A DNA stretch of 64,000 nt, taken from NCBI GenBank assembly GCA_032718475.1, contig JAUCBJ010009135.1, forward strand, positions 82,626 through 146,625, in the 5' to 3' direction. The number at the start of each line of letters is the position of its first letter. Position 1 is the stretch's first letter. A model generated the notes under the pieces. It did no database searches. It worked only from the letters and a program-made list of their open reading frames with translations, and had not been told where the DNA came from. The stretch comes from Nemertoderma westbladi (taxonomy: Eukaryota > Animalia > Xenacoelomorpha). This document shows, piece by piece, positions 1 to 56,674 of the stretch. Made by a program: the position numbers and the translations under genes.

Positions 1-3000
1 ACTAGCTGGTTCTGGTAGTGTAATGAAATTTTCTCTTTCACTTTCATCACTCACTAAATCTGACATTCCTATTGTTTGAATATATGTGATATACATTGTT
101 CCTGGTTTCAAAATTGAATCATCCATATTAAACATATTGGAGTAAGTCTCTTCATTACAAAGTATGGAATTGTTACAGAGTATCGTCACTAAAAACTTTT
201 TACTATGCCCATCTGGTTTGTCCCATGAGATTAAACCAGATCGAGGAGAGGGAGTATGAATTGTGGGTTTGTCAGGTGGAACTGGTTGAACTGTAAGTGT
301 ATACCATGTTTTATCACTTATAGCATTTCCATATTCATAATAATCTGCAACACAACTAATATTGATATTGTAGTCATTGCCTGGTTCCAGATTAGTTAGC
401 ACAAAGGCAGAATCTTCTTTTGGTATTTTAATATCAGGCAGCCAAATACCACTATCTATTTTACTATAACAAAGAAGCTGAAAATCATGTTTTGATTGTG
501 TTGGTATAGTCCATTTTATGGTATATTCATACCTGTTTGAATTATTACCACTTATATTGAACAGAGGGAGAGGTTTAGTTACAGCAAAAGCATTTGTGCT
601 AGAATCTAGTATGGCTTCTGTGGTAATGTAACAAGATGTAATATTTATTTTATACAAACATCCAGGAGATAAGCGTTCAAAGAGATGAGAAGTGATAACT
701 TCATCGATGGTTGACTCTTGTACATTTTCTCCATTAACTTCATCAATATTAATTTTAAAGTAACTTATTGGACATAATGGTCTCTGCCACTTGACTTCCA
801 TAGAATTTGTTGATATGTTTTCAAATACGATATCAGTTGGTGGAAGAGGCTTTGATGTAACTGATATTTTAACTGGATTTATACAAAACAAGTTCACCAA
901 ACTGTTACAAGATAAAATATTCATAAAATATGTAGTAGATGGTAGACATGCAAATTTGTGATTTGTTTCTCCTATTACAATTCTATCTAATTCAGTGGCA
1001 ATTGTTTCATCATCAGATAATTTTGATAATTCAATACAGAAATTCATATTATCATATATTCCTTTACTAGGTCTATCCCAAGTAAGATTTATTTCGCGAA
1101 TTAAATTGGCATCTACCTCTACTGCATTACAATTTCTCACAGGCAATGGAGGATATTTTAGTTCTCTGATTGTTGAAAAGGCAATATCTCCATTTGTTGC
1201 AAACGCGCCTAATCGGATAAGGTATATGTCTCCAGGTACCAGTTCATCAATACTGAAAATATATGTGACATCATTTATCATATTTGTTGATGATAATTGC
1301 ATGTCACCCCATATAGGACCACATTCCAATTCTGACAAACTTTCATATTTATATTTTCTTAATATTTGACTATCAAAGGTAATGTTGTTAATAGTGCCAT
1401 TTGATTTTGTCATGTAAGATATGATATATTTGTCTACTTCCCAATCCACAGATTCAACTTCAATTTTAATTCGGCCATCATCATTTATTAATATTGAAAA
1501 TTCCTCAATTGGTTCTGGTGGTGTAAATATTTCCAATTTATCACTATAATCACTCATCAATGATTTAAATACTGACCTTACCATCACTTCATACCTTGTA
1601 CCAGGAAGAACTTTCACCAGCATATTACTATCAAGAGCTTCCAATTCTCTGATATCATTTTCTGATGTCATTTGTACTTTATACTTATCACATTTTCCCT
1701 CTGGGATCGTCCAATTAAGTTGAACCTCTCTTGGATCATTTGTAGAGATTTCTGGAATCATTGGAATTGCTGGTGTTGTGTCGAACTTGAAGAAAATTGA
1801 TTTATCACTGACTTGTTCACCAAAGTCATACTTTGCATCATATGTATGGGAAACCTCATAGGAAATTCCTGGAGTCAAGTCTGTGACTTTCTTTTCATTT
1901 ATACATGCAGATTCAATTGTAATTTCTCTTTCTGAATTGTCAGCAATGTCACTTTTAATAATATATAATTTTTGTCCAGTAACATAACTATTCTCCAAGG
2001 GTATGTTTCTCCATTGAATTTTATAAGTTTTATATTCTTCATTAAACCCATAAATTTCTTCAAGTTTCATTGGTTGTGCTATAAATTCTTTATTAGATTC
2101 ATCAAATTTCGGAATAGCTTCTTCATTTCTCTGATAAACTGTTCTTATCCTAATGGAATAAGCAAATCCTGGCCTCAGGTTATCTATTATGTATGAAAGA
2201 TCATTGTATCGCGGTTCCTTTACTATCCATTCTTCCATGTTACAATGTGAGTGATATCTACAATAAGCAATTTCATAATAGCTCACATTACATAATGGTT
2301 TTTTCCAAGAAATGCCCATTGTATTCATTGATATATTGTCAATCTCAATACCCAATGCTTTTGCTGGGCTAGTCGTAAATTCATCTTCAATGGGCTCACT
2401 TTCTAAATTAAAATCATCATTGCAGCTAAATAATTTAATTTTGTATATGGTTGATGGTTCAGGTACAAATGTATATTTTGTATTAAATAATTTCCTGACC
2501 CTGTTATCTTGCCAGATATTATCATTGTTAATATCAATCATTATTCTCAATCTATAACTTTTACATATACCTTGTTCAGGCTTTTCCCACGTAACTGCCA
2601 CCTGCTTGCCATCTGTGGCATTTGTGTCACAGCTAACACCAAGGGAAGACATTATAGTCTTTGTTTCTTCTGTTATCGTTAAGATCCGTGGTGGCAGAGG
2701 AGGATACTCATATAATATGTTATCGCTTAATGCAGATAAGCCGGATCCTGATTTTACTTGAAGCATTAATTTATATATGTTCCCAGGCACCAGAAGCTCA
2801 TTAATATTTTGTATACTTTTGTTATCATGCGAAAACTTTGCTGACTCCAAAGTTTGCCAAGATATTTCATCCCTGCCATCTACCACAGAATCATCCGCAT
2901 TCACATCCATTTCAAATATAGATTCCTGTTTATGGAATTTCAGTTTATATTTGTTTGGACTCCAGTCTAAGTCATCCCAGACTAGATCTTTATTGGGTAA

Positions 3001-6000
3001 AACCTTAAGACCTTTTGGTGCCTCAGGGTTTGTGGTAAATTTGCAATGGGTTACATTTTGACTACATTTATCAGCTGGTCCAATAGTTTGCACTGACACA
3101 ATGTATTCAGTTCCAGGTAGAAGATTGGTTAAATATGATTCAAAGTTACATTCACAAACCTCATAATCTATTTTTCTAGCAATATTTGGTGGGTCAATAT
3201 TTTTCATGAGTGTTACATTAAAACTTGTATAATTACCCTGCAACTCAGACCAACTCCACAAAGCTGTTGCTGATCTTGCTCTAATTGACTCTGATGGAAT
3301 TTCTATACAGCGTGGGGCCTCTGGAAAAACAGAGAACTGGTGGACATCCGATTTGTCACTGTAAACTTCCGGCAGACCATCATGTGCAGCTACACGTTTA
3401 CACCAAACCTTATACTCATATCCAGGTTCCACATCAAGAGTTACAATATTTTCATTACTGGGAATTGATACTGGAACTCTGTGTTCCAATTCATCAATTC
3501 TTTGCAAATAACAAAGTTGTTTAGAGCAGAAATAATTAGACTCTGACCAAGAAATTGTGTGTTTTGAAGTCGAGCAATTATCACCATATGAATTCAATTC
3601 CTCTGGTTTTTCTGGGAAAGTTGAAAATACCAACATTTCCGAATTTTCACTGTTATATATTTTTTTGTTATAATCTTTGTTCACAATTTTGGCATATACA
3701 AATGCTTCATATTGATAACCAGGCAACAGCTTGGTTAGTAAATATGAATTATTGCCAAGACAGTCTTCTATATTATATTTCTTATTATTTATTTTCTCAG
3801 TGTATGTGACAATGTAGTGAACTTCTTCACCTGACTCTGAGTTTTCCCAAACAAGTTCAACATTTTCTGAAGTTAATGAGCCTTCAACAATATTCAATTT
3901 TACTGGCCTTTGGGGACAAGTAAAACAGTTAATTTCCTCAATTGAGCTTTTCACATATTCATTAACAATATCCATTTCTCTGTTCACTTCATTCTCAATT
4001 ATAGTTTCTGTCCAGATTCTTATTACATATTTTGTACCTGGCTTTAATTGTTTAAATTGGTGACTACTTGTTGTACTATCCAAAAATTCATCTGGTTGTT
4101 TGTCAAATTTCACAGATTTCTGATGGTTTTTAACTTGAGCAGCGCCATTCTCAGTTTTCTCCCCAATTCGCAGACCAAACCGAGAAATAAAAGTATCTTC
4201 AGGAATATCCCAAGTAATAGAAATATCATTAGCAGCTGCACTAAATGTTGGTTCCCTTACAGGTTCTGGTAACACTGTATAGTGTAGGGATATAGGGATA
4301 CTAGAAACAGAATCTCTAATATCAATGTAAGCCTGAGCCTCCAGTGTAAATGTGTATGAGTATCCTCTCTGTAAACCATTTACTGTATATTCTTCAACAT
4401 TCCCAATGTCACCAAGGACACCTGTAGGCATATTACCTTTCAATCCTTTATTAACTGGTTTGCAGTTCAAAATATATCCCTTAGTTAATATTGAGGTTGA
4501 TTTCTTCCATGTCAATATTAATGAAACTCCCTCAATTCTGCTACTGAAATCAGAAGGTTTTGCTGGCCGAGTCCAATGAATGGCCATTGTCGGATCAGAC
4601 TGAACATTTCCATTTACAGCAACGACGAAGATAGCATACCATTGTCCCTCTTCCAGTGAGCCATCTGCACCAACTTTAAATAGCTTTCCATCTAAATTAT
4701 CACTTGTGGGTTCGCTATTAACTTCTTGAAGTGTATGCTGGCAACGCTTTAAACAAATATCCAGTGTTGGAGGAATTTTACGACTAATTATCTCATGTGA
4801 AAGAGATTTAGCTAGAATGTGATACACTTCATAATGAGTAACTGATGATGATAAATCCCACTGAACGTCAATTGTTGAAACGTCATGATCACAAATTCTT
4901 ACATTTTCAGGAGGTGGAAGACGCTTTGTCATAAATGTACCTTTAAGTGCTTCAACATTTGGCTTTGTTGAGAGATTCTTACCACTGCAAGCTGTCAATT
5001 TAAAATTATATTTTCGTTTGGGGTCAAGGTTTTGAACTTTATAGGAAGTTTGTCCTTTATTTAAAACTATATTTTCAAGCTGGAGATTGGTTGAAGATTG
5101 GTGATGAAGTTGCGACTTACGAAGCTGATGTGGTGATGATTGACTGGTCCCTTGTCTCTGAAGAATGCGCCTCTTAGTAGGGGATGTTTGTAATGCAGGA
5201 TTATGAGTCTTACTAGACTGCTGAGTATTCGTTTGAATTTGATTAATTTGAGTTGAGTGGCTATGTTCTTGCTGGGAACATTCTAACATATAATGTGTAA
5301 ATTCCCCTCTGTTTGGAGGACACCACTTTAAATCAATAAAGTTTGATCCAATTGTATCTGCTTCCATACCAATTGGCTGATATGCATAAGTATGTTCAGA
5401 AAGAGAAATACAAGCCATTGAAGTTCCATTGAGAATGGAAGACACTGAGATAGTGTATTCCTTACCAGGTTCTAAACCTTCAAATGAAGCTGTATATTCA
5501 TCACTTGCATCTATTCTGCGGAATGAGTTGTGGCTATCAGGAGGTGTTAAGCTTACTTCATAAGATGTAAGCTTTGCTGATGTTTTGTTTGTTGATTTAT
5601 GTATTAAAGCTGCCTCCCATTTAACAATTATTTTTTCTTCTGTCATTTTTTCTGATAAAAATATAACATTCTGAGGAGTCCATAGAGCCTGGAACTCATC
5701 ATTAAGAAGTGTGAAAATCTTCAATGATGCTGGAATTCCACAAGATTGAGCAACTAAGTCAAGAAGAAATAGTATATCTTGGCCCTGGGTGTCATCCACA
5801 TTTTCAATATAAGTGTAATCCGTTTTGCAGATTCGCATTTGTAGCAAGCTTTTGTGTAAATGTGAACGAGCTTTGGAAAAGGTTAAAATGGACCAATCAT
5901 CACTGCAAGATATACCAAATTTTTTGTACACAGCTAATTGTCGAGAAAATGGTCGGAGATGTAATGCAAAACACCAAAATAATGAGTATAAGTTACAGAG

Positions 6001-6771
6001 GAAGTGAATCACAAGGATAAGACACAAGATTATACTTACGTAGTGGTAAAATTTGAGCTGTGTGCTGGAGCATGCGAATTGTAGATTGGTTGCACTTGGT
6101 GTTGATGCAAATGGGTTCAATGGTATGGTGCACAATGCATCGTTATCAATAGTAGTTTGATCGGCAGCAATCCAAATATTAAATCCAAAGATAGAAGATC
6201 CAAATATGATTTCAAATACACTTTTCCACACATATGCTCGGTAAATTTTACTGCTCCTCTTTAAGGATTCACTCATTTCTTTGCACTGTCTTTCCTTCAC
6301 AAACACATCTCCAGCCCTGCCTTCTTCCAATGAATTTAGTCTTCGGGTTGAATCTGCATCAGTACAGTTTAGTGATGGTTCTACAATTAAGTTATAAAAT
6401 AATTCTAGTTTATTTCGGATAGAAGACCTCTTTAAACTAAATTTATCTACGATGAGTAGAAAAAGAGATTCAATTATCATTATGTATGGAAGATATTGTG
6501 TAACAAAATTCAATAAGTCATTTTTGCATTTCCCCTTTGCATAATCCAATATACCATCGCTAATTTCAATGTTTATGTCATCTAAGTGTTCACCCGAAGG
6601 AACGCATTGCATGTCATCTGATGCAAAAAATTTACCTGCAAGCGCAATTAATGAGACAATAAAGAGACCTTTATTTGCGAAATCCTCTATTGTGTCATGT
6701 GTTGCTGTGAAGATCTTGGTGTGAGGACTCTCTTCCCATAATGAATGCGCCAATTCCTCAACAGTTGTCAT
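1..6771 (-). CDS. Pannexin/LRRC8-like 4-TM channel domain fused to a long FN3 repeat array (3' end outside window, >=2257 aa)
   Basis: Hand translation from ATG at 6771 (context ttcaccATG, in-frame stops just upstream): MTTVEELAHSLWEESPHTKIFTATHDTIEDFANKGLFIVSLIALAGKFFASDDMQCVP...YAKGKC...QYLPYIMIIESLFLLIVDKF...KLELFYNLIVE...IYRAYVWKSVFEIIFG...LCTIP...FACS...FYHYVSIILCLILVIHFLCNLYSLFW...DILFLLDLVAQ. FN3 signatures follow (KWE...FEGLEPGKEYTISV, NLDPKRKYNFKL, SWDKPDG...LKPGTMY). All sampled blocks down to base 1 are stop-free, and the ORF track lists no minus-strand fragments here, as expected for one open frame with no stop inside the window. Confidence 0.88.
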   Translation of the reverse strand, partial: MTTVEELAHSLWEESPHTKIFTATHDTIEDFANKGLFIVSLIALAGKFFASDDMQCVPSGEHLDDINIEISDGILDYAKGKCKNDLLNFVTQYLPYIMIIESLFLLIVDKFSLKRSSIRNKLELFYNLIVEPSLNCTDADSTRRLNSLEEGRAGDVFVKERQCKEMSESLKRSSKIYRAYVWKSVFEIIFGSSIFGFNIWIAADQTTIDNDALCTIPLNPFASTPSATNLQFACSSTQLKFYHYVSIILCLILVIHFLCNLYSLFWCFALHLRPFSRQLAVYKKFGISCSDDWSILTFSKARSHLHKSLLQMRICKTDYTYIENVDDTQGQDILFLLDLVAQSCGIPASLKIFTLLNDEFQALWTPQNVIFLSEKMTEEKIIVKWEAALIHKSTNKTSAKLTSYEVSLTPPDSHNSFRRIDASDEYTASFEGLEPGKEYTISVSSILNGTSMACISLSEHTYAYQPIGMEADTIGSNFIDLKWCPPNRGEFTHYMLECSQQEHSHSTQINQIQTNTQQSSKTHNPALQTSPTKRRILQRQGTSQSSPHQLRKSQLHHQSSTNLQLENIVLNKGQTSYKVQNLDPKRKYNFKLTACSGKNLSTKPNVEALKGTFMTKRLPPPENVRICDHDVSTIDVQWDLSSSVTHYEVYHILAKSLSHEIISRKIPPTLDICLKRCQHTLQEVNSEPTSDNLDGKLFKVGADGSLEEGQWYAIFVVAVNGNVQSDPTMAIHWTRPAKPSDFSSRIEGVSLILTWKKSTSILTKGYILNCKPVNKGLKGNMPTGVLGDIGNVEEYTVNGLQRGYSYTFTLEAQAYIDIRDSVSSIPISLHYTVLPEPVREPTFSAAANDISITWDIPEDTFISRFGLRIGEKTENGAAQVKNHQKSVKFDKQPDEFLDSTTSSHQFKQLKPGTKYVIRIWTETIIENEVNREMDIVNEYVKSSIEEINCFTCPQRPVKLNIVEGSLTSENVELVWENSESGEEVHYIVTYTEKINNKKYNIEDCLGNNSYLLTKLLPGYQYEAFVYAKIVNKDYNKKIYNSENSEMLVFSTFPEKPEELNSYGDNCSTSKHTISWSESNYFCSKQLCYLQRIDELEHRVPVSIPSNENIVTLDVEPGYEYKVWCKRVAAHDGLPEVYSDKSDVHQFSVFPEAPRCIEIPSESIRARSATALWSWSELQGNYTSFNVTLMKNIDPPNIARKIDYEVCECNFESYLTNLLPGTEYIVSVQTIGPADKCSQNVTHCKFTTNPEAPKGLKVLPNKDLVWDDLDWSPNKYKLKFHKQESIFEMDVNADDSVVDGRDEISWQTLESAKFSHDNKSIQNINELLVPGNIYKLMLQVKSGSGLSALSDNILYEYPPLPPRILTITEETKTIMSSLGVSCDTNATDGKQVAVTWEKPEQGICKSYRLRIMIDINNDNIWQDNRVRKLFNTKYTFVPEPSTIYKIKLFSCNDDFNLESEPIEDEFTTSPAKALGIEIDNISMNTMGISWKKPLCNVSYYEIAYCRYHSHCNMEEWIVKEPRYNDLSYIIDNLRPGFAYSIRIRTVYQRNEEAIPKFDESNKEFIAQPMKLEEIYGFNEEYKTYKIQWRNIPLENSYVTGQKLYIIKSDIADNSEREITIESACINEKKVTDLTPGISYEVSHTYDAKYDFGEQVSDKSIFFKFDTTPAIPMIPEISTNDPREVQLNWTIPEGKCDKYKVQMTSENDIRELEALDSNMLVKVLPGTRYEVMVRSVFKSLMSDYSDKLEIFTPPEPIEEFSILINDDGRIKIEVESVDWEVDKYIISYMTKSNGTINNITFDSQILRKYKYESLSELECGPIWGDMQLSSTNMINDVTYIFSIDELVPGDIYLIRLGAFATNGDIAFSTIRELKYPPLPVRNCNAVEVDANLIREINLTWDRPSKGIYDNMNFCIELSKLSDDETIATELDRIVIGETNHKFACLPSTTYFMNILSCNSLVNLFCINPVKISVTSKPLPPTDIVFENISTNSMEVKWQRPLCPISYFKINIDEVNGENVQESTIDEVITSHLFERLSPGCLYKINITSCYITTEAILDSSTNAFAVTKPLPLFNISGNNSNRYEYTIKWTIPTQSKHDFQLLCYSKIDSGIWLPDIKIPKEDSAFVLTNLEPGNDYNINISCVADYYEYGNAISDKTWYTLTVQPVPPDKPTIHTPSPRSGLISWDKPDGHSKKFLVTILCNNSILCNEETYSNMFNMDDSILKPGTMYITYIQTIGMSDLVSDESERENFITLPEPAS
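5677..6771 (-). other. Pannexin/innexin/LRRC8-type transmembrane domain (aa ~1-365)
   Basis: Four hydrophobic segments and two Cys in each predicted extracellular loop (C56, C82, C214, C234). Colinear motif matches to LRRC8A as recalled: MIPVTEL~MTTVEEL, KYFPYLVLLHTLIFL~QYLPYIMIIESLFLL, KLEHFVSIL~KLELFYNLI, VYRLYMRQTIIKVI~IYRAYVWKSVFEII, DFAFMLHLIDQ~DILFLLDLVAQ. Confidence 0.8.
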
Positions 6772-16995: not shown

Positions 16996-17132
16996 CGCCT
17001 TCATTTCCTGTAGTACTATATTGGTTTTGTAGTGATTGGTATTGCTATTGTTATATTATTATTACAATATTGGTATTGTCTGATAGTATAATCTGATGAT
17101 ACTGCTGTACTGTGCAGATTTCGCTTTTGATA

Positions 17133-19703: not shown

Positions 19704-19802
19704 CACAACACATTTTATAATTCTTTGTTCAATTTGTTCGGAAGATTTATTAGCAAGGGTATTTATTATTCTGAACACCAAATATACCAAATGTGTACCA
19801 AA

Positions 19803-39000: not shown

Positions 39001-41632
39001 GAGAGGTTCATTTATCCTGTACTACTGTATTAGCACTGTGGTGGTTGGAAGAGAGGTTCATTTATCCTGTACTACTGTATTAGCACTGTGGTGGTTGGAA
39101 GAGAGGTTCATTTATCCTGTACTACTGTATTAGCACTGTGGTGGTTGGAAGAGAGGTTCATTTATCCTGTACTACTGTATTAGCACTGTGGTGGTTGGAA
39201 GAGAGGTTCATTTATCCTGTACTACTGTATTAGCACTGTGGTGGTTGGAAGAGAGGTTCATTTATCCTGTACTACTGTATTAGCACTGTGGTGGTTGGAA
39301 GAGAGGTTCATTTATCCTGTACTACTGTATTAGCACTGTGGTGGTTGGAAGAGAGGTTCATTCATCCTGTACTACTGTATTAGCACTGTGGTGGTTGGAA
39401 GAGAGGTTCATTTATCCTGTACTACTGTATTAGCACTGTGGTGGTTGGAAGAGAGGTTCATTTATCCTGTACTACTGTATTAGCACTGTGGTGGTTGGAA
39501 GAGAGGTTCATTTATCCTGTACTACTGTATTAGCACTGTGGTGGTTGGAAGAGAGGTTCATTTATCCTGTACTACTGTATTAGCACTGTGGTGGTTGGAA
39601 GAGAGGTTCATTTATCCTGTACTACTGTATTAGCACTGTGGTGGTTGGAAGAGAGGTTCATTTATCCTGTACTACTGTATTAGCACTGTGGTGGTTGGAA
39701 GAGAGGTTCATTTATCCTGTACTACTGTATTAGCACTGTGGTGGTTGGAAGAGAGGTTCATTTATCCTGTACTACTGTATTAGCACTGTGGTGGTTGGAA
39801 GAGAGGTTCATTTATCCTGTACTACTGTATTAGCACTGTGGTGGTTGGAAGAGAGGTTCATTTATCCTGTACTACTGTATTAGCACTGTGGTGGTTGGAA
39901 GAGAGGTTCATTTATCCTGTACTACTGTATTAGCACTGTGGTGGTTGGAAGAGAGGTTCATTTATCCTGTACTACTGTATTAGCACTGTGGTGGTTGGAA
40001 GAGAGGTTCATTTATCCTGTACTACTGTATTAGCACTGTGGTGGTTGGAAGAGAGGTTCATTTATCCTGTACTACTGTATTAGCACTGTGGTGGTTGGAA
40101 GAGAGGTTCATTTATCCTGTACTACTGTATTAGCACTGTGGTGGTTGGAAGAGAGGTTAATTTATCCTGTACTACTGTATTAGCACTGTGGTGGTTGGAA
40201 GAGAGGTTCATTTATCCTGTACTACTGTATTAGCACTGTGGTGGTTGGAAGAGAGGTTAATTTATCCTGTACTACTGTATTAGCACTGTGGTGGTTGGAA
40301 GAGAGGTTCATTTATCCTGTACTACTGTATTAGCACTGTGGTGGTTGGAAGAGAGGTTCATTTATCCTGTACTACTGTATTAGCACTGTGGTGGTTGGAA
40401 GAGAGGTTCATTTATCCTGTACTACTGTATTAGCACTGTGGTGGTTGGAAGAGAGGTTCATTTATCCTGTACTACTGTATTAGCACTGTGGTGGTTGGAA
40501 GAGAGGTTCATTTATCCTGTACTACTGTATTAGCACTGTGGTGGTTGGAAGAGAGGTTCATTTATCCTGTACTACTGTATTAGCACTGTGGTGGTTGGAA
40601 GAGAGGTTCATTTATCCTGTACTACTGTATTAGCACTGTGGTGGTTGGAAGAGAGGTTCATTTATCCTGTACTACTGTATTAGCACTGTGGTGGTTGGAA
40701 GAGAGGTTCATTTATCCTGTACTACTGTATTAGCACTGTGGTGGTTGGAAGAGAGGTTCATTTATCCTNNNNNNNNNNNNNNNNNNNNNNNNNNNNNNNN
40801 NNNNNNNNNNNNNNNNNNNNNNNNNNNNNNNNNNNNNNNNNNNNNNNNNNNNNNNNNNNNNNNNNNNNTACTGTATTAGCACTGTGGTGGTTGGAAGAGA
40901 GGTTCATTTATCCTGTACTACTGTATTAGCACTGTGATAGTTGGAAGAGAGGTTCATTTATCCTGTACTACTGTATTAGCACTGTGGTGGTTGGAAGAAA
41001 GGTTCATTTATACTGTACTACTGTATTAACACTGGTGGTTGGAAGAGAGGTTCATTTATCCTGTACTACTGTATTAACACTGTGGTGGTTGGAAGAGAGG
41101 TTCATTTATCCTGTACTACTGTATTAGCACTGTGGTGGTTGGAAGAGAGGTTCATTTATCCCGTACTACTGTATTAGCACTGTGGTGGTTGGAAGAGAGG
41201 TTCATTTATCCTGTACTACTGTATTAGCACTGTGATAGTTGGAAGAGAGGTTCATTTATCCTGTACTACTGTATTAGCACTGTGATAGTTGGAAGAGAGG
41301 TTCATTTATCCTGTACTACTGTATTAGCACTGTGGTGGTTGGAAGAGAGGTTCATTTATCCTGTACTACTGTATTAGCACTGTGGTGCTTGGAAGAGAGG
41401 TTAATTTATCCTGTACTACTGTATTAGCACTGTGGTGGTTGGAAGAGAGGTTCATTTATCCTGTACTACTGTATTAGCACTGTGGTGGTTGGAAGAGAGG
41501 TTCATTTATCCTGTACTACTGTATTAGCACTGTGGTGCTTGGAAGAGAGGTTAATTTATCCTGTACTACTGTATTAGCACTGTGGTTGTTGGAAGAGAGG
41601 TTCATTTATCCTATACTACTGTATTAGCACTG
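21007..41632. repeat. Satellite array, 50-bp unit, ~410 copies (20.6 kb as assembled) with higher-order blocks
   Basis: Unit gaagagaggttcatttatcctgtactactgtattagcactgtggtggttg; variant-rich flanks and a homogeneous core at ~38200-40768; interrupted by an N gap. Confidence 0.99.
40769..40868. other. Assembly gap (100 N) inside the 50-bp satellite
   Basis: Run of exactly 100 n, a typical placeholder of unknown true length; the same satellite in the same orientation lies on both sides. Confidence 0.98.
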
Positions 41633-42677: not shown

Positions 42678-43170
42678 ACACTACTACTGTACTACTACTA
42701 GGTCGAGTGTGCTCGGACAGTGGAAATGAGATCCTTCCAGGCGTCCCGATTCTACTACTGTACTACTACTAGGTCGAGCGAGCTCGGACAGTGGAAATGA
42801 GATCCTTCCAGGCGTCCCGATTCTACTACTGTACTACTACTAGGTCGAGCGAGCTCGGACAGTGGAAATGAGATCCTTCCAGGCTTCCCGATTCTCCAAC
42901 TACTACTAGGTCGAGCGAACTCGGACAGTGGAAATGAGATCCTTCCAGGCTTCCCGATTCTCCAATTACTACTACTAGGTCGAGCGAACTCGGACAGTGG
43001 AAATGAGATCCTTCCAGGCGTCCCGATTCTACTACTGTACTACTACTAGGTCGAGCGAGCTCGGACAGTGGAAATGAGATCCTTCCAGGCTTCCCGATTC
43101 TCCAACTACTACTAGGTCGAGCGAACTCGGACAGTGGAAATGAGATCCTTCCTGGCTTCCCGATTCTCCA
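42678..43170. repeat. Tandem array of ~62-69-bp units (~7 copies), probably the core of a non-autonomous element
   Basis: Unit actactactaggtcgagcga(g/a)ctcggacagtggaaatgagatccttccaggc(g/t)tcccgattct. Flanked by (gac)n/(gaca)n/(gacg)n microsatellites at ~42440 and ~43280. Single diverged copies of the core occur at ~11605-11650 (+) and ~52270-52305 (-). Confidence 0.85.
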
Positions 43171-44260: not shown

Positions 44261-44266
44261 TTTATT
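44261..44266 (-). terminator. Candidate polyadenylation signal AATAAA of the caspase-WD40-FN3 gene
   Basis: tttatt on the + strand, ~50 nt downstream of the stop at 44319; the AT-rich context lowers specificity. Confidence 0.35.
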
Positions 44267-44318: not shown

Positions 44319-47300
44319 CTAGACTGATATAAATGTGAAATCACTGTCTGAGTCTCCAAGTCCTTCTATCACAGATGATGACATCCCTGATTGTACATAT
44401 AGCCTCATTGTTGATATGCAGACATTAATCGCTGCATATTTCTTTGTTGTTTGTTTTATTAGAATTAACTTATTATATGGACTCTCCGATTTGAATATTT
44501 TGTAATAGCTAACATCACATTCTGGTTTATCCCATCTCAAAACTAATTTACCTTGTGGGAACTCCATGTGCTCTATTGTTAAATTGGATGGCTTTAGTGG
44601 CTTTGCAATAAATTGAATGAAAGTCTTTCTGCTAAACTTATCAAGAAACTTGTTGTATGCACATATATTTATAGTGTATACGTGTGAGGGAGCAGTTATG
44701 AATGTGACATGGTTACATTCAATATCAACAACACTTTTTACTTTTGTTTTGGTAGTAAAGCAGTAAATTTCTGCAGTATTATTCACTTGTGAAGATTCGC
44801 CAGTCGGTTTCGCTTGTTGCCAAATGATTTTAGCATTTTGTGTAATACCACCATCATTAGAGTATTCCTCAACCACAGCGTTATAAGGACGCTTTATTTC
44901 TCGTGCAAATCGAATTGTATCTGTATAGGCAATTTCATCTCCATTACTATTCCCAAATCGAACCTCATATACAGTTTCATAGTCATCGAAGTAACTTTCA
45001 AGATTTCTGGTTTCACATCCATTAGTTGCAATAGGTACAGGGCTTATAGTTTTCCATTCCAACTCCCCCTGAGAACGGTACTGTAATATGTATTCAACAA
45101 CTGCCCACGTCGATTTTTTCCATTTTGCAAACACTTTTCCATCTACTTCTATAATTTCAAAATTATCAGGTTGACCGGGCTTTGTAATAAATTCAAGTGT
45201 TACCGCTCTGCCTTTTACATCATTTTCACCGACAGGAATTAATTTAGCTGTATATTTAGTACCTGGTTGAAGGTTTGTTAATGAATATGACTTACAAGGG
45301 AATATGATATATTCGTTGGTTCTCTCGTCAATGATTTCTATATTTACCCCTTTGTAATACCCAGTATTATATTCCCATTGAATGACACAAGATTCCTTGG
45401 TAAGGTCACAGACATAAACATTATCTACAGGAGCAGGCGGAAGGGTAAGCATCTTATTAACATGCTGCCCTTCTTTCATATTATCTTCTGCATGCCAAGC
45501 CAAGCACGAAACACCAACCTTATAACAGTAACCAGGTTCAATTTGTGATAAATTTATTCTGCATTTATTTTCTGTATCTTCCAGTTGAAGAGTTTGTGAC
45601 AGTGGTTCTTCATGAAGCTTACTAACATAGACATTAAAGTGAGAATAATATGAATTCCGATCATTTGGCTTCCGCCATTCTAACTCAATTACTTTTGATG
45701 CAATAAATCTGAGTTGTAGCTCTTTAGGGATTGGTGGTTCTTCGATAAACTCAAAGTCACAATAATTTTTCTTTACATATGTTTTTCCAGTTATGCTATT
45801 AGTTCTATATACCGTCTCAACTCGATATATTGATAGAATTCCACGTGCGGCGTCATTGTAAGTAAATGTTGTTGTATCACTGGATAACCTTGAAGCTGTA
45901 GAAATTATTTGTAAATTTTCACCCTTAGATCCATGATAGATATTATAGTACGATATTTGACAATCTGGAGTGATCCACTTCAAATTTGTTTTTAATGTTC
46001 CATTAGTTGAACTAAATTTTAAATCTTTTACAGGCAGTGGTGAAGACAAGGCTATATGTTCTAAACCTTGACTGAATGCCCCTGATGAACTCACAGAAAA
46101 CACTACCAGCTTGTATAATGTTGATGGTATAACATTTAATTCATATGTTGGATCTGATGTGATTATGTTTTCTGATATTTTCTGATATTCTTTCCCATTT
46201 ATATGTAATCTGAAAACATCGATGCTGTAATGATCACATAATCCCTTAGTTGGTTTCTCCCAGGTAAATGTTATACTTTTATTTTCAGGTTGTGACGAAA
46301 TATTAGTCATCTCAGATATATTACAAGGTGGATTAGGGTTGCAATCAACATGCATGATATCCGAATATTCTATATTACCATATTGAGACAGTGCTCCTAC
46401 ACTTATATCATAAGAGCTACCAGGTGTCAAATATTTATACAATTCTAAATTATGGATTCTTGTTGTAGAGATATCTTTTTTATTTTCTGTACCATCCTCT
46501 GTTATATATTTAAATATGTAGTTTTTAACTTTCCATTTCTGTTGTTTCAACTGGAGAATATTATTTTCAATTCTTATTATTGGGGCAGATGCATTGGTAT
46601 TAAATTCAACATTATTACTTTTGTCACTTTCTTTGTTATATTCTCCAACTGTCGTCATGTATAATATATACTGAGTTCCTGGAGATAAATCATCTATTAT
46701 AAAATATTTAGAGTTCACATTATCAATATTTATATTAATTAATTTAATATTTTGTGATTCTTTTTCTTTAAAATATATATAAACTCCAAGAACCATTGAA
46801 TCGCTATACTCCCACGATATTCTACATGATGTTGCTGAGATATTATCAACAATGATGTTTAAAGGACATATTGATTTCAGATAAAAGGTTCCAACAACTG
46901 AATGTTCACTTTCAACTTCATCCATACCTCTGTATTTTGAGATACTTGTTACAAACCACTTGTATATTAGTCCTGGTCTTAGATCATCTAATGAATATTT
47001 ACTAGGGTATTGTTTTTCTGCATATAGAACCACTAATGGGAAGAATGCGGACATGCTACCTGGTTTAACACAAATCATTTGATGGGTAAACATTCCCTTT
47101 GAAAGAGTCCATGTTAAGTCATAGCTATGAGTATCACATATTACTTGCTGGCTATTTAATTGAGGTTTACATGGTTTGGTTACAACCCTTTGTACAACTC
47201 TGTTAGTCAATATTTCTCTACTTCCAGAATCAAATGCTGATATTGATATTCCATACAATATTCCTGGATTTAAACCCTCTATAGTGTATTCCTTAGTTCC

Positions 47301-49136
47301 TCCATCAATGATGTTAAAAATTTCTTCATTGTTACTTGTATAAATTTCGTTAAATTTCAGTTTATATTCAGTAACTTGAATGGATGTATTTCTAAAGTTT
47401 AAAGTTATTGTTGTAGTTGTTGAGCCTGATATAACCACATGATTTTTTTGTTTCACTGGTGATACTATGCTATTCAATTTGGAATTAGATTCTATCGTTT
47501 TTTCAATATCATATTCTTTAACAAGATTATTGCTCCACGAATTTAGGAGTTTATTTCCCCCAAATTCTATATTGTTGAGATTTACCCTCCCTTCTGCCTT
47601 AATTGAACGAATTGATATGCCAGTATTTACTTCCAACACCTTTATTATTGACCCTCCTCCAATAGCAACTAGATTTCCTTTCTCATGTACAGTAATACAG
47701 GTTGCGCTAATATTTGATTTCCACATCAATTTTCTGCATTCTACATCATAACAATAAACCGACGTGTGTCCATCACTCGATGAGATAATGTATCTCCCAT
47801 CAGGTGTCCATTTGATACTCAGCACAGCCATATTATGATAGGAGTGAGTGTCTAACCATTGTGGTTCTTGGATTGGCACTCCATCTACTTTCCAGATTTT
47901 GATTAGTCTATCTTTAGAACAGGAGGCGAGTTTGCTCCCATCAGGTGAGTACATAATATCGAGTACTGCCTTGTCATGGGACTTCCAAATCTGATTTTTG
48001 ATCTCCGGGTGAAGATGTATAATTGTACTACTCCCATCAGAGTAACATGTCGCAATATTGGAATGATTTGATGGGTGGAATATAATTCTGTGAAGTTTGG
48101 AGGAAGGAAATCTCAGTGAACTTTTTGAAATATTGAATATAACCTCCCAGATGTCATTTAGATTCCATACCAGTATTCGGCAATCCTGTGTACAAGCCGC
48201 TATTCTCTGGCCATTGTGTGAAATGGCGCAATTCGTTACATAAGTTACTCCACCTGGGATAGGTAGATTATCTACCAAATTTCGAGAACATTTACTAAAT
48301 ATTCCAATTCCGTTTGGGCCACAAGTCAAGTAACGCAGCTTATCTGGGAAGTAGTGAACCTCATCTGAATGGATATCGAGATTAAATACAGAAAGTGTTT
48401 GAACAAAGTCAATAAAATTTAAAGATTGCAATAAATTATCAATTACTACTGGTTGTGACGTCATATTGTTTCCATACCTAATAGGTTCAATTTTTAATTT
48501 ACTAAATAGAGAAGTCTTTATGTCTCCATAAGTGTGAGTCTTTAGAATAGTATCGATGGTGCCGCACACAAGATTTACGAATGGAGAGCCCTGATTGCTG
48601 TAGAGAGGGAGTTTTTCACCTGGACTACATCCCATCGCTACTGCAATGTGGTTAAACATTGGATAATTGAGATTTATATAGTTCTCATTCATGTCAGTAG
48701 ATGTTGTTTTTCCTTGACAAGCTTCAATGAAGATGACACGAGGTTTTGGTGGGTTATTTAGAGACAAACATTCATTGGCAAATTTTCTGACGATGTCTTT
48801 TATGATAATTTCTTGCTCATCAGAACAAATGATTGCTCCATATGTTCCATGACCCAAGATAAAAATAAAAAGACATTCAATTTCTCTAAGCATTGTTTGG
48901 TTGCGAAAATCATCCAGGCCATTTATCATATTACTGCGAGTAATTGTGCCATTAAGATGAGGTAAAAAGTGGACTATTTTGCAGCCTAACCCATTTCCAA
49001 ATACCCTATTTATGAAATCAACATCGTGTTTGGAACCAGGATGTCTTGAATTGTCCTTGTAATCCGTGATGTTAACAATCAAACATATCTTGAGACCTTC
49101 TTTGGAAATTTGATATGGATTCTCAGATGCAGCCAT
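44319..49136 (-). CDS. Caspase-like (peptidase C14) domain + WD40 repeats + ~11 FN3 repeats, 1605 aa
   Basis: Caspase: CLIVN..RHPGSKHD..FIFILGHG (H96)..KPRVIFIEACQG (C140)..SPGE..GSPFV..SQP. WD40 (aa ~290-545): HDKAVLDIMYSPDGSKLASCSKDRLIKIW, HNMAVLSIKWTPDGRYIISS. FN3: IEGLNPGILY, LDDLRPGLIY, IDDLSPGTQY, LTNLQPGTKY. No evident signal peptide or TM segment. Confidence 0.93.
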   Translation of the reverse strand: MAASENPYQISKEGLKICLIVNITDYKDNSRHPGSKHDVDFINRVFGNGLGCKIVHFLPHLNGTITRSNMINGLDDFRNQTMLREIECLFIFILGHGTYGAIICSDEQEIIIKDIVRKFANECLSLNNPPKPRVIFIEACQGKTTSTDMNENYINLNYPMFNHIAVAMGCSPGEKLPLYSNQGSPFVNLVCGTIDTILKTHTYGDIKTSLFSKLKIEPIRYGNNMTSQPVVIDNLLQSLNFIDFVQTLSVFNLDIHSDEVHYFPDKLRYLTCGPNGIGIFSKCSRNLVDNLPIPGGVTYVTNCAISHNGQRIAACTQDCRILVWNLNDIWEVIFNISKSSLRFPSSKLHRIIFHPSNHSNIATCYSDGSSTIIHLHPEIKNQIWKSHDKAVLDIMYSPDGSKLASCSKDRLIKIWKVDGVPIQEPQWLDTHSYHNMAVLSIKWTPDGRYIISSSDGHTSVYCYDVECRKLMWKSNISATCITVHEKGNLVAIGGGSIIKVLEVNTGISIRSIKAEGRVNLNNIEFGGNKLLNSWSNNLVKEYDIEKTIESNSKLNSIVSPVKQKNHVVISGSTTTTITLNFRNTSIQVTEYKLKFNEIYTSNNEEIFNIIDGGTKEYTIEGLNPGILYGISISAFDSGSREILTNRVVQRVVTKPCKPQLNSQQVICDTHSYDLTWTLSKGMFTHQMICVKPGSMSAFFPLVVLYAEKQYPSKYSLDDLRPGLIYKWFVTSISKYRGMDEVESEHSVVGTFYLKSICPLNIIVDNISATSCRISWEYSDSMVLGVYIYFKEKESQNIKLININIDNVNSKYFIIDDLSPGTQYILYMTTVGEYNKESDKSNNVEFNTNASAPIIRIENNILQLKQQKWKVKNYIFKYITEDGTENKKDISTTRIHNLELYKYLTPGSSYDISVGALSQYGNIEYSDIMHVDCNPNPPCNISEMTNISSQPENKSITFTWEKPTKGLCDHYSIDVFRLHINGKEYQKISENIITSDPTYELNVIPSTLYKLVVFSVSSSGAFSQGLEHIALSSPLPVKDLKFSSTNGTLKTNLKWITPDCQISYYNIYHGSKGENLQIISTASRLSSDTTTFTYNDAARGILSIYRVETVYRTNSITGKTYVKKNYCDFEFIEEPPIPKELQLRFIASKVIELEWRKPNDRNSYYSHFNVYVSKLHEEPLSQTLQLEDTENKCRINLSQIEPGYCYKVGVSCLAWHAEDNMKEGQHVNKMLTLPPAPVDNVYVCDLTKESCVIQWEYNTGYYKGVNIEIIDERTNEYIIFPCKSYSLTNLQPGTKYTAKLIPVGENDVKGRAVTLEFITKPGQPDNFEIIEVDGKVFAKWKKSTWAVVEYILQYRSQGELEWKTISPVPIATNGCETRNLESYFDDYETVYEVRFGNSNGDEIAYTDTIRFAREIKRPYNAVVEEYSNDGGITQNAKIIWQQAKPTGESSQVNNTAEIYCFTTKTKVKSVVDIECNHVTFITAPSHVYTINICAYNKFLDKFSRKTFIQFIAKPLKPSNLTIEHMEFPQGKLVLRWDKPECDVSYYKIFKSESPYNKLILIKQTTKKYAAINVCISTMRLYVQSGMSSSVIEGLGDSDSDFTFISV

Positions 49137-49142
49137 TGCTTG

Positions 49143-49170
49143 CTAGGTGGTGTAAAAATTACAAAAAGTA
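49143..49170 (-). promoter_or_regulatory. Putative 3' splice acceptor just upstream of the caspase ORF
   Basis: Minus strand reads tactttttgtaatttttacaccacctag|caagcaATG (pyrimidine-rich tract + TAG, phase 0 relative to the ORF). Confidence 0.45.
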
Positions 49171-50189
49171 TACAAATATGTGCAAAATAATTTGATTTGT
49201 TTTGGCTCGTCTCATTTCAAAAATATAACTATAACTAACTAATAATCTCTTTATATATATTATATATAAAAATTAGTCAGCTCAGGGTCCCCAGATCCTG
49301 CTACAATTGTGGTAGAAATGTGGTACTGTACTGTCAGCCCAGTAGGCCAGCCCGTTCAACACCAGTAGCCTATTGATCATTTAGTGATCAATAGTTCATC
49401 ATAGAGTGGGTTTGTAAGCCCCATCAAATAAAGACAACACAGAAGCCGGAGCTAGAAGGTTGTTGCCTCTAGGGTGTTAGTAGTGATTATGTGAGTATGT
49501 GACAATGTGACAAGGATAATAATATGAGTGAGGCACCGAGAAGGTGTTACTGAGTACTGAGTTACTGAGCTTTTATATTAATTGAGAAACATTAAAAAAA
49601 GATACACAGACTTTACTAATCAATATATTTGTGCCTTAATAAAAAGGATGTGTAACTTCCGAGCAAACCGTAAGACAACATTTACTGTATGGGTATTCAA
49701 ATAAATATATTAATACTACAGTATATAGTATCAATATATTGAAATATACTTTGTAATGTATTTAATAGTTATTGTCTAGCACAATGGTAATACTGGATAC
49801 TCCTCTATCAGTGTTAGGTAACCTAACCTTGGAAGCACACACTTGGCTTGCTGTATAACAAAACTAACTCTACAGTCGGCAGAAGGGCTGTAGGGTAGGC
49901 CATAGATAGGCGGATGGTAATCAATCAATGGCTAGCCATGCAGACAAGGTCGACGGAAGATGGAATGTAATCAAACAATGGCGGCCTCCTGCGAAGATGC
50001 TTGTAGGAGTTGCGACCACAACCGGTTTATTCGCACAACTGAAAGATATGAGAATGAGAACCCTCCAGGAGAAATACTGGCTCGGACGTCACCCGGGTCA
50101 ACAAGGAATGCGTCCCTCAGTGGTGCAGGCACACCAGGCCTGCATCGAAAAAACTGTTACTGTAACATAAGACAGAGAAGAAAGAAGAA

Positions 50190-52172
50190 CCAACCTGTTG
50201 AAATGTAAAAAGACACTACATATCGCTACAATGAACACAACACACACACACTCCAAAAGATCATAGCAACAAGGGTCACAGCTCTGGCAACGGAATATAA
50301 AATCAACAACATCTGTATTCAAGAACATCGGATTTCAGCTGGATTACATTCTTATCAACAAAAAGTGGAGAAACATCATGATTAACTGCGAGGCATACAG
50401 CTCGTTCAGCCTAATTGGTTTGACCACAGAATCGTGACTGCAGAGATCAGACTCAGTTTGAGAACCAGCAAACCCAGGACTAGCAAGCGAATCAACTATG
50501 ACTGGGAGAAACTCAGAACTGACATTGCAGTAAAGGATGCTTATTATTTAGAGCAGCAGTAGTTCCAGTACTCCTCTACGGGAGTCCATGCTGGGCTCTA
50601 ACTGCTGAGGACACCAAATCTCTGGATGGCACATTCACAAGAATGCTACGCCGGGTACATTGTGTCAAGTACAATGCACACATCTCCAACCAGACACTAT
50701 ATAACATTGGAGGTGTCTCATTGGTTCCCCCAAGCTTGACACTAGAACAAAATCGCCTCCGCTTTGCAGGACATTGCTTTCGCCGTGAGGACCAGCCTGT
50801 GCATAATCTTGTACTTTGGCAGCCTCATGGAGTGAATAAGCATGGTGGACAGCCCATGACTTTCTTGAGACGCATCTTAAAGGACACTGGCCTTAAAGAT
50901 GCGGATGATCTAGCAAATGTCATGGGTGATAGGGAGTTGTGGCGGTGCAATTTTGTTGACAAGCCGGCACAGCATTCTTAAAAATGCAGCTGCAATGCAG
51001 CATGCCGATCCTAGTAGTAGTAGTAGTAGTAAAGGATGCTTGCATAGTGATAGTAGAAATTCAAAACCGCTTTGAAGTGTTCCAGTCAATGGATGAAGGC
51101 AAGTCTCTGATTCTATATACCAAAATATAATAAAAGCCCGCAGTGAATCGTCAGGAAGCAGATTCCCCATAAACCCAAATGAAAACAGTATGTGCCATGG
51201 CAAGTCTCTGAGGTTACTTGTAAGAGATAAGATTTTAAGATAGCCTACCAAGTAAAAACCGAACAACCAACAACCGAAAACATCAACAAGGTTGAGAAAG
51301 CTAAAGAAGATCTTAAATGGGCCTACAACTTCAGCCAGGAGAAGTACATACAGGATAAAACTGAAGCAATTACAACTGCTCACATACAGCAACAATCAAG
51401 TCTTACCTGGCAAACTGTAAATGAGGTATCTGGTCGGAAAAGTTGTGCAAATGGGCGCCTCAAAGCCGATAGTCCTGAAGAACATGTTGGGAAGTGGAAA
51501 AATCACTTCAGCAACTTGCTTGGGCAGCCACCAAACATCGAGGTCAGCCCTACAAGGAAAATATATGACAAGACACTACCTATAGATACATGGGATTTCT
51601 CCAAACTGCCGAACTCCAAAGAAGCATTAAAAGCATGTCCAATAATAAAGTGAGAGGATTAGATGAAATCCCAGCGGAGGTATGGAAAACCGGAGTGCTA
51701 AACAGACCATTATTGAATGTTTGCAACCGGATGTTAAAAGGGGAAAAGCCTCCACCAATTTGGACTAAATGTCAAAAGCCTCTCCCCAAGATAGGTGACC
51801 TCGGTATACCAACAAAATATCGTGGGATCTGTCTGCTTGTGGTAGCTGCTAAAATATACAATAAAATGATTCTATATAGGATTAGGCCTCACATAGACTC
51901 AGATACTTGCACTACAGAGACTGATTGAAGGAATTAATCAAAGAATCTCCCCGCAGTCATGACTTTTGTTGACTTCAAGAAGGCATTAGACTCCATCCAT
52001 AGAGGTAAAATGCTTGAAATCCTAAGTGCTTATGGAATACCAGAAGAAATTGTTGCTGGCATTGGATTGTTATATTGTGACACAGAAGCGCAGGTACTCT
52101 TACCAGATGGTGAAACTGAGTTTTTCTCAATCCTGGCTGGCGTACTGCAAGGTGACACATTAGGTGACACAT
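50190..52172 (+). mobile_element. Degraded RTE-type LINE (family B): endonuclease and RT remnants, interrupted by a family A insertion
   Basis: LHIATMN, CIQEHR, DHRIVTAEIRLSLR, GLDEIPAEVWK, FVDFKKALDSIHR and GVLQGDT in broken frames; ends abruptly after LQGDT. Its 5' region may extend to ~49850. Confidence 0.8.
50543..51027 (+). mobile_element. 5'-truncated RTE (family A) insertion with (TAG)n tail and 14-bp TSD
   Basis: Closely similar to the reverse complement of 53845-54320 (MLRRVHCVKY...RLRFAGHCFR); TSD agtaaaggatgctt at 50529-50542 and 51028-51041. Confidence 0.92.
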
Positions 52173-52789
52173 TGAAAAAATTACGTGGCAAACTGTAAAT
52201 GAGGTGGCATGTGAGGGAGGATCCGGCTATGATATATATATAGACCAAAAAGTGATACTGAAGGAAAGCAGGGAGCCTGGAAGGATCTCTTTCCACTGTC
52301 CGACCTCACTCAACCCAGTAATATTAGTAGTTATATTAGTAGTTATACATAGTAGTTAGATTTGTATGTATTTGTTTGAATACCTTTCTGAAACAAATTA
52401 TTATTCTCAAAAACTATTTTAATTAAAATTAAGAATTATTTTGAAGATAGTTTACCAACAAGTATGTGACAACATACCATGTATTACGGAGCAAGTGTAT
52501 GTTATCACTTAAGCCGTCGTTATCCATTAGTATTATATTTGAGTTTGAAGACAAAGTCCATATTCACAAATATTACATGTTAACTAACTTGGATTCAACA
52601 ACATAAATTATATGGGGTCATATCTGTATTATATGTGAATGCGAACTAATTGTTCATCTGATTGTATCTTATATTTACTATGTCTGGATTACTGCATAAT
52701 TTGTACTGCAATACTTCTGTACTGCCGTGGGCCCACATGGGGCCTGCCTACTGGAACTGATGAAGAGGCTGGAAAGACAACTGTCAGTT

Positions 52790-53840
52790 CATCAAGAACG
52801 ATGTGTTGTCAAATGTCTGGAGTGCGTATGTACGCAAAGGAATAATGTGCGGCAGCATTATAGCTACGATTGAACCATGGGTGCATTTCACGGACTTAAT
52901 GCTGAAGGATGCTAAGCGAGCATTACTTAACACGCTGCCAATGATGGATAGGAACAGATCTAAACAACCGTTCTCAAAGTCAAGACAGAGTGGAGATGGT
53001 ATGAGGAAACTCATACTTAATGATATCATGGACGTGTTGGATTACCCAGGATTCGTGGAATTTTCCCCGACCCCTCGGTTTATCCATAATCATCTGGAAA
53101 ATATCACGCCGTTCAACACATCCGCTGAAGATATGGGTATCCTACTCCGGACTGTTAGTGCGCTACAGGATCGTCTCGTGGTTATGGAAGCCTGCTGTGC
53201 TGCTCACGCCATTACACATGGGGCACCAGCAACCAGTATACTTACGAGCCGTCCATCTGCCACTGTATCCACCACTGATGGTGTAGCATACAAATAGGCT
53301 TATCATGACGCAGTTGTTAATCCATCAGCTAGTAAAGGTACAATTACCAATCCGGCTGAACCTGCAGAAGCTGGTGACTTTCTGCAGGTTGGTGCCAATG
53401 GTCAACATCAGGAGACTCACAAAGACAAGCCTAAGCTACCATCAGGTAACAAACACAACACTGGTGGTGGTTCTACCAATAAGGTGATCTTCTGTCGATG
53501 GAGAAAACCGCGTAAGTTAGTTGCTGGTACAAAGGCTTCAGGTGGCCTTGAGACATTTGAGCCGAGGCAGACTCTTCTCCTCTCACGTTGTGCCCCCATG
53601 GTGACAGAGAGAGGAGAAGATCATGTCATATGTTAAGGATACCTTCAACATAGTTACAACCTGTGCCAAGTACAATGTCCTGTATATGACGATTCACAAG
53701 TCCTTTTGCTTTCATGTCTTGATGGCAATCGCGAGAATCTGCTAAGTCCGGATGGGTGGCCTCGCCACGTGCGTATCTGCTCCTTATATACCCACTTCCA
53801 GAACTCGAAGTTTACAAACCCGGCTAGGGACAGTTTGGTG
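52790..53840 (+). pseudogene. Probable LINE ORF1-like remnant
   Basis: ORF 52803..53297 (FTDLMLKDAKRALL..NDIMDVL, coiled-coil-like LRTVSALQDRL) and downstream broken frames (LSRCAP...LLSPDGWPRHVR) resemble ORF1 proteins of invertebrate LINEs; recognition is by motif feel only. Confidence 0.4.
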
Positions 53841-53844
53841 GGTA

Positions 53845-56126: not shown

Positions 56127-56674
56127 TGTGACGGGATCCAAAAATCCCGGTTTATCCTGGTTCTTTGTTTACGCGTCCCCGCCGTGTGTAAAAGAGTTAT
56201 TATAGTTCTTCCGATGTTATTGATATATATGTATACGATGCAATAGAGTAAAGTAAGTTAGCACAGTTGATGAGTAAACGGTAATATACCTGTAATATTG
56301 ATGGATGATGGTGGCGACGACGGTAACAAAAGTCACTGTTCTGCCCTAACTGTACTGAGATAACTGAATCAATGAATAACACCAACCGGTAATATACTGC
56401 TCTGGTTTGGCCATATTACTCAGCGGATGCCTGCCCCCCATTGGCTGATAACCTAATTCTCGCCCTCCCATCTCTCTGGGAGTGTTTCCCCTTGCTACTG
56501 TTACTCTCTCTCCTTGGGGTATAACCTCTGACCCCCCATTATGTGTGTGTCCTTTTGGGTTTCTCATCCCCGTTTATTGGGGTGATACGAGGTTGATTGG
56601 CAATCAACCTCGTACTCTCAATATTGCTTAAAGCTAACTTTATGGGGTGGTTAGCGGAATTGAATTCGCTAACA
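56127..56674 (-). repeat. Candidate 3' LTR of the BEL/Pao element
   Basis: Begins TGT (tgtgacgg, directly abutting the cut RTE) and ends ACA (cgctaaca), followed on + by ctccccccc (polypurine tract on the minus strand). The partner LTR is not in the window. Confidence 0.45.

Follow-up and report, generated by a model that had tools for sequence, protein, structure and literature searches.

The minus strand of the window (the whole stretch of 64,000 nucleotides that was analysed) encodes, in a single-exon frame of 1605 amino acids at 44319..49136 (stop to stop 44319-49142, first ATG at 49136), a protein in which an N-terminal caspase domain is followed by a WD40 propeller and 11 FN3 domains. 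We consider it about an even chance (probability approximately 0.5) that this is a lineage-specific cytosolic sensor-protease, which would be switched on by clustering and would cleave after a residue that is not aspartate. What is new here is the three-part protein, the rebuilt substrate pocket, and an FN3 cassette shared with a neighbouring gene; sensor-caspase fusions as such were already known.

The caspase-fold domain (aa 1-245; 48402..49136, minus strand), which has p20 and p10 halves and a 22-residue linker, was recognised both by Pfam (Peptidase_C14 at aa 16-210, E = 2.2e-20, 73.8 bits with a cut-off of 21.4) and in the structure model. It is followed by a seven-bladed WD40 beta-propeller (aa 246-552; 47481..48401, minus strand), located by Pfam (E = 3.4e-17, approximately aa 300-550), sequence, and model, and by the FN3 domains (44322..47459, minus strand; Pfam fn3 E = 4.5e-36), which by profile and alignment form a five-domain super-repeat and end with a complete unit and then the stop. 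An AATAAA polyadenylation-like signal is located about 50 bases past the stop (44261..44266, minus strand). In the AlphaFold model five blades are confident, with blades 1 and 6 partly below a pLDDT of 50, and the FN3 region of this 759-aa model has a pLDDT below 50 and no alignment depth. With a self-built FN3 profile, nine of the 11 units were found at E < 1e-9, while units 9 and 10 were weak (E = 0.22 and 0.63) and were located from their spacing and from how they align with the FN3 units of the neighbouring gene. The preliminary description of this DNA had listed an N-terminal caspase lacking a prodomain in the ORF, 6-7 WD40 repeats, and about 11 FN3 domains; these features were borne out by the Pfam matches, by the alignment of Met1 with the first residue of P0110, a caspase that has no prodomain, and by the seven blades and eleven units placed here, to which we add the motif EACQG instead of QACxG and the absence of both pocket arginines. 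Neither a signal peptide nor a death-fold domain was found in the frame by Pfam and sequence inspection, and the only candidate for a membrane helix in it is the hydrophobic strand preceding the catalytic His. An NB-ARC or NACHT NTPase was absent from the frame among the 25 of 29 Pfam families listed, there is no Walker A motif, and the domains leave no space between them for an NTPase. The number of N-glycosylation sequons is at chance level (17 versus 18.3) and is therefore uninformative on the location of the protein.

An assembly artefact at the caspase-WD40-FN3 joints was considered and rejected, as DNA contigs from two studies bridge the joints. In three of four runs, two of which are from the same sample (X1 and X3) and one of which may be the window's own source (X2), a continuous, gap-free contig reaches from 47180 to 49271 or beyond, with 1, 0, and 20 differences, and this stretch contains the caspase, the propeller, and nearly the whole first FN3. 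Among the runs compared no contig spans the entire FN3 array, and therefore the tail beyond FN3-1 depends on the present assembly. The contigs of all three runs are interrupted at two places, 47180 and 44920-44949. The interval so delimited has approximately 2 to 5 times the depth of the 3' flank, and over FN3-2 to FN3-9 the sequence of two long contigs departs from the window by about 3% (34 differences in 1021 and 38 in 1414), compared with 0-1% over the caspase and WD40 regions. In combination, the shared break points, depth, and divergence suggest that the block from FN3-2 to FN3-9 (44920..47210, no strand assigned) is present in further copies, although depth itself does not equal copy number. 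The 23 in-frame differences considered are the best-supported ones (there are 137 more); almost all of them fall within the FN3 array's multi-copy candidate block, and they could be allelic. Of these 23, 10 are silent, where 21% is expected (P = 0.011), and none is a stop.

By its sequence matches and fold scores, the caspase domain is a fast-evolving descendant of true animal caspases. The best 60 of 81 sequence matches in the PDB are all caspases, caspase-8 and -2 being first, and MALT1 was not seen among these 60. Among 1.84 billion representatives searched there were 300 matches (best E = 4.8e-17); the identity is at most 38% in every one of the best 150, and when 20 matches were looked up, all 12 of the named clusters bearing a species label were animal. 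The model of the domain (mean pLDDT 86.4) matched caspase-8 chain 4jj7_A best (VIA Z 26.9, rmsd 2.1, 214 aligned), and the Z scores were 22.8-26.9 for caspases compared with 20.7 for MALT1, at most 17.8 for metacaspases, and 11.2 for Raptor, a comparison which leans toward caspases, since the model itself was built on a caspase alignment. Foldseek concurred with the caspase-first ranking. The C-terminal strand through which caspases dimerise is recognisable in the alignment. In both trees the domain is the longest or second-longest branch, with about 2 changes per site, and its sister differed between runs, so that its placement is not fixed. Horizontal transfer from bacteria was also considered and was rejected on the basis of the animal-type C14 matches, the animal species labels, and the fold scores.

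Rather than a bacterial-type C14 domain in a prokaryotic context, the gene lies in a window that is animal-like in its LINE reverse transcriptases, its Bel/Pao element, and its long satellites. The Bel/Pao LTR retrotransposon, a type of element not known outside animals, occupies several frames of the minus strand at 58511-64000 (aspartyl protease, RT, Peptidase_A17 with E = 1.7e-41, integrase, and DUF5641); a lipase match at 63350-64000 is weak and below the cut-off. Remnants of LINE reverse transcriptases are found at 8088-10323 and 53912-55885 on the minus strand and at 50523-52200 on the plus strand. The largest satellite, with a 50-bp unit in approximately 410 copies and a higher-order periodicity, extends over 21007-41632, with a 100-N gap at 40769-40868; further satellites have units of 59 bp (12453-14937), 68 bp (16271-16996), 45 bp (17133-19703), and 71 bp (42681-43167), and the long frames at 17051-19728 are translated 45-bp satellite.

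The catalytic residues of the caspase domain are kept, while its substrate pocket is changed. The catalytic His96 (48849..48851), followed by Gly97, is His in all 93 aligned matches, and the catalytic Cys140 (48717..48719) is Cys in 92 of them; Gly142, Asp38, and Gly183 are also retained. Arg179, Gln283, and Arg341 of caspase-1 form a basic pocket that confers aspartate specificity (PMC2064784). At these positions the present domain has His32 (49041..49043, with Arg31 one residue earlier), Glu138 (48723..48725), and Leu178 (48603..48605), all on the minus strand, where 88, 86, and 84 of the 93 aligned matches have Arg, Gln, and Arg, respectively. An independent alignment of 100 relatives, from which 50 of the 150 listed matches with less than 190 aa of the domain were left out, has the Arg/Gln/Arg pocket in 85, and the present domain reads His/Glu/Leu in both alignments. 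Besides the present domain, only one of the 93 aligned matches has lost all three residues. Therefore, in place of the QACxG motif and the Arg179/Gln283/Arg341 pocket of true caspases, the protein has EACQG and His32/Glu138/Leu178, and we firmly predict that the domain is not a normal aspartate-cutting enzyme.

The residue after which it would cut is a softer prediction. An acid at 283 and an Asp six residues after 179 have been described as signs of Arg/Lys-cutting pockets (PMC2064784), and Glu138 and Asp38 correspond to these marks of paracaspases and metacaspases; Asp38, however, is not diagnostic, as it is present in 91 of the 93 true caspases as well, and the other marks, Asp or Glu at 341 and Leu at 179, are replaced here by Leu178 and His32. 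The P1 residue is most likely Arg or Lys, since Asp38 and Glu138 are acidic and the arginines are gone, and might otherwise be hydrophobic because of Leu178. Arg31 could partly stand in for Arg179. Retention of the dyad and of structural residues during the loss of three pocket residues was counted in favour of an active, respecified protease, and, as the dyad was kept over a branch as long as approximately 2 changes per site, the protease is probably active. On the other hand, the only partial match to the paracaspase/metacaspase pocket means that the pocket may simply be decayed, and the change of the conserved Asp163 and of the consensus Asp column in the p20-p10 linker (Asn150 here, with Asp148 in a TSTD site two residues away) fits a crippled enzyme. 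The domain could then be a pseudo-caspase scaffold or decoy similar to c-FLIP or the Raptor N-terminus, which would bind a caspase or another partner while the WD40 and FN3 parts dock. The loss of the whole pocket triad together with that of several more conserved positions, the long branch in both trees, and the presence of c-FLIP (Z 22.9) and Raptor (Z 11.2) among the fold matches are consistent with such a scaffold. However, His96, Gly97, Cys140, and Gly142 are kept, whereas the pseudo-caspase domains described from Acropora are without His and Cys (PMC4715348), and we consider a scaffold or decoy unlikely.

The preliminary description had also proposed a self-contained sensor-protease that bypasses the apoptosome. 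Its first part stands, in that sensor-like repeats and a protease with an intact dyad occur in one chain without CARD, DED, or NB-ARC; an apoptotic initiator role is unlikely, because all three aspartate-pocket residues are replaced. The domain is thus not expected to trigger an apoptotic caspase cascade, and its targets probably differ from the substrates of apoptotic caspases. An aspartate-specific initiator triggering apoptosis directly, without Apaf-1, would agree with the true-caspase ancestry and fold and with the TSTD site at Asp148, and a coral caspase-8 is functional despite an altered pocket (PMC4715348). With Arg179, Gln283, and Arg341 all replaced, a state shared by only 1 of 93 aligned matches, such an initiator is nevertheless most improbable.

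The preliminary description had further pointed to a phase-0 acceptor at 49143, and there is indeed a T-rich tract with an AG (49143..49180, minus strand, by sequence inspection), 6 bases before the ATG, in phase 0 and with no stop between the AG and the ATG. This would be expected if the frame were the last exon of a longer gene, with a death-fold prodomain or signal peptide encoded in an upstream exon, and a short upstream ATG frame at 49215 is hydrophobic. However, that frame stops after 18 codons, none of the 60 minus-strand frames of at least 35 aa in 49143-58500 has a death-fold match, and neither CARD nor DED was found in these or in the 1605-aa frame; two other frames in the same interval are LINE remnants. 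Furthermore, Met1 aligns with Met1 of P0110, and the start codon of the neighbouring gene, too, is preceded by an acceptor-like AG, with the difference that a stop lies between the two. A longer gene is therefore very unlikely, and the acceptor is likely to mark a 5'-UTR intron or a trans-splice site, which is a simpler reading than a coding exon.

The neighbouring gene (1..6771, minus strand, open at the window edge; by Pfam and alignment) encodes a pannexin/LRRC8-like four-helix region and, behind it, at least 18 FN3 units, which stand where LRRC8 has LRRs. It matched Pfam Pannexin_like with E = 8.9e-6 and 25.4 bits (cut-off 25) and LRRC8C with E = 0.0022, and its membrane region comprises four hydrophobic segments, each of the two predicted outer loops containing a pair of cysteines. 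The FN3 arrays of the two genes align in register (23% over 1127 aa, E = 2e-35), the mean z between their units being 6.4 at offset 5 and 6.1 at offset 10 compared with 0.2-3.9 elsewhere, and the neighbour's own units pair as 7/12/17, 8/13/18, 9/14, 10/15, and 11/16. As judged from this in-register alignment and the shared five-unit super-repeat, one ancestral FN3 cassette is attached to two different putative death-type effectors. The genes are 37 kb apart, with satellites and retroelements between them, and their linkage is seen in one genome only. In LRRC8, the region after the fourth helix, which contains the LRRs, is cytosolic, and by analogy the FN3 array of the neighbour is predicted to be cytosolic as well. 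A Gln/Ser-rich low-complexity insert with basic clusters (approximately 5080-5280, minus strand; aa 505-570 of the neighbour, P0066) lies within its FN3 unit 2, shortly after the membrane region, and is a candidate protease-sensitive loop. The ESM Atlas gave nothing usable for the neighbour, and our literature search found no description of a pannexin-like-FN3 protein.

The repeats might localise rather than sense. Titin-type super-repeats bind periodic filaments, and the FN3 super-repeat could likewise hold a non-immune protease and a channel on a periodic host filament for tissue remodelling. The five-domain periodicity kept in both genes, the purifying rather than diversifying signal among the 23 listed differences, and weak titin matches of the neighbour's array are in line with tethering. 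However, the apparent recent copying of FN3-2 to FN3-9 (about 3% versus 0-1%) is more like that of immune repeats, and both attached effectors are of death type, which makes tethering rather unlikely. As this FN3 array is found on a pore-type effector too and seems to be undergoing duplication, we favour a defence or stress-surveillance role for the caspase protein. Its cytosolic location is suggested by the absence of a signal peptide or membrane helix, by the WD40 propeller, and by the occurrence of the same array after the fourth helix of an LRRC8-like protein.

Initiator caspases and MALT1 are activated by induced dimerisation. By analogy, the sensor-protease would be inactive as a monomer; the WD40 propeller and FN3 array would bind a repeated, multivalent ligand and cluster the chains, the clustered caspase domains would dimerise without an ATP-driven platform, and the dimerised protease would cut non-aspartate sites in a downstream effector. 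Pannexin-1 has been described to open when a caspase cleaves its C-terminus, which motivates a bolder extension: the lineage may have built an intracellular defence in which a swappable FN3 super-repeat cassette replaces the LRRs and NLRs and is joined to two effectors, a caspase that re-evolved a specificity for residues other than aspartate and a pannexin/LRRC8-like pore, the protease opening the pore by cutting its cytosolic tail (candidate site, the basic insert at aa 505-570), so that protease and pore would form a death switch without apoptosome or gasdermin. We regard this extension as speculative and decidedly unlikely. If active, the protein would be a natural example of a true animal caspase that gave up aspartate specificity but not catalysis, and its apparent parallel with a rotifer caspase-WD40 protein would bear on how specificity switches in clan CD. 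The shared array suggests that cytosolic FN3 repeats can do what LRRs do in NLRs and LRRC8. Hydra caspases with altered pocket residues have reportedly been described and, if so, the novelty of the rebuilt pocket drops. The main claim lends itself to direct testing, because the protease domain on its own is small and can readily be assayed.

The rarity suggested in the preliminary description proved to be overstated, because caspase domains at the N-terminus were also found ahead of WD40, MORN, MATH, or GTPase domains and amphioxus shortcuts have been published. In a Pfam scan of the best 150 of 300 caspase matches, two have a caspase followed by WD40, both without FN3: CAF1008221.1 of Brachionus calyciflorus (P0205) and an ENA cluster of 7 (P0154). 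Other partner domains among the matches are MATH, GTPase, ankyrin, kinase, LRR, and TNFR, and in one cluster member the caspase is followed by MORN repeats. The self-built FN3 profile matched none of the proteins scanned, and no fn3 family was among the Pfam families listed (25 of 57 in one part of the scan of 150 matches). The three-part protein itself was found nowhere else in the databases and literature searched. A search with aa 1-560 gave 64 matches among 7922 candidates, all WD40-only and none with a caspase domain by profile, and aa 1-255 and aa 560-1605 gave none among 492 and 3988 candidates, respectively; as these searches covered proteins of 882-2809 aa with a word index that misses distant relatives, this absence of homologues is weak evidence. 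An identical sequence was not found in the collection searched, the metagenome, GTDB, and viral scans gave no relatives, and the leads in the ESM Atlas, bacterial WD40/C14 clusters, were all below 0.9.

The closest arrangement is that of P0205 and P0154, in which an N-terminal caspase is directly followed by one WD40 propeller, but neither has FN3 or groups with the present protein in trees, and P0154 retains the aspartate pocket. P0205, with Ile/Asp/Leu, is the only other of 100 rows with all three pocket residues changed; joining it with the present domain in a tree gave a borderline AU p of 0.052, and the propellers of P0205 and P0154 have no significant BLAST similarity to the present one, that of P0205 being not detectably closer to it than generic WD40. 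Since the trees do not join the pair and the propellers are not detectably closer, the pocket change is likely to be parallel (convergent) in the rotifer and the present protein. P0205, together with P0243 (C-terminal MORN, pocket intact), may represent a rotifer-side family of caspase-repeat fusions.

Among better-known systems, caspases-8, -7, and -9 (MEROPS C14A) share the fold (Z 26.0-26.9), the dyad, and the p20-p10 order, whereas the present protein lacks CARD or DED, QACxG, and the Arg/Gln/Arg pocket and has a long C-terminal tail. MALT1, a dimer-activated paracaspase, likewise has beta-sandwich domains after the caspase fold and an acid at 283, but the fold score is lower (Z 20.7), and the present protein is without death or N-terminal Ig domains and has Leu rather than an acid at 341. 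Raptor/Kog1 has the same order of an N-terminal caspase-like fold and C-terminal WD40, although the fold match is far weaker (Z 11.2) and the present protein is without helical repeats. The Apaf-1 apoptosome shares the WD40 propeller, but the present protein has neither CARD nor NB-ARC. The parallel with bacterial caspase-WD40 proteins drawn in the preliminary description is an analogy only, as the domain is of animal type by sequence matches and fold. Bacterial gasdermin-associated proteases are fused to WD40, LRR, or TPR, and one of them cuts after Leu (10.1101/2021.06.07.447441); they resemble the present protein in the fusion of C14 to WD40 and in non-aspartate cleavage, which is predicted here, and their protease gene lies beside a pore gene, for which the partner here would be the pannexin/LRRC8-like channel, but their ancestry is separate, and no relative was found in GTDB genomes. 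FN3 has also been described in a Mnemiopsis TIR2-FN3 gene that is induced by Vibrio (10.1101/2024.01.21.574862). As in invertebrate sensor-caspase fusions, caspase and repeat domains are found here in one frame, by Pfam and contigs. The amphioxus TNFR-caspase and LRR-caspase "direct connection" shortcuts (Zhang et al. 2008, PMC2575513) similarly combine a putative sensor and a caspase in one chain without a death-fold adaptor; they keep QACxG in a C-terminal caspase, in contrast to the N-terminal caspase, rebuilt pocket, and WD40 and FN3 repeats found here. The protein would work like such an invertebrate sensor-caspase shortcut but stands outside the aspartate-specific caspases, the paracaspases, and the Apaf-1 family when judged by the residues or domains that define those groups.
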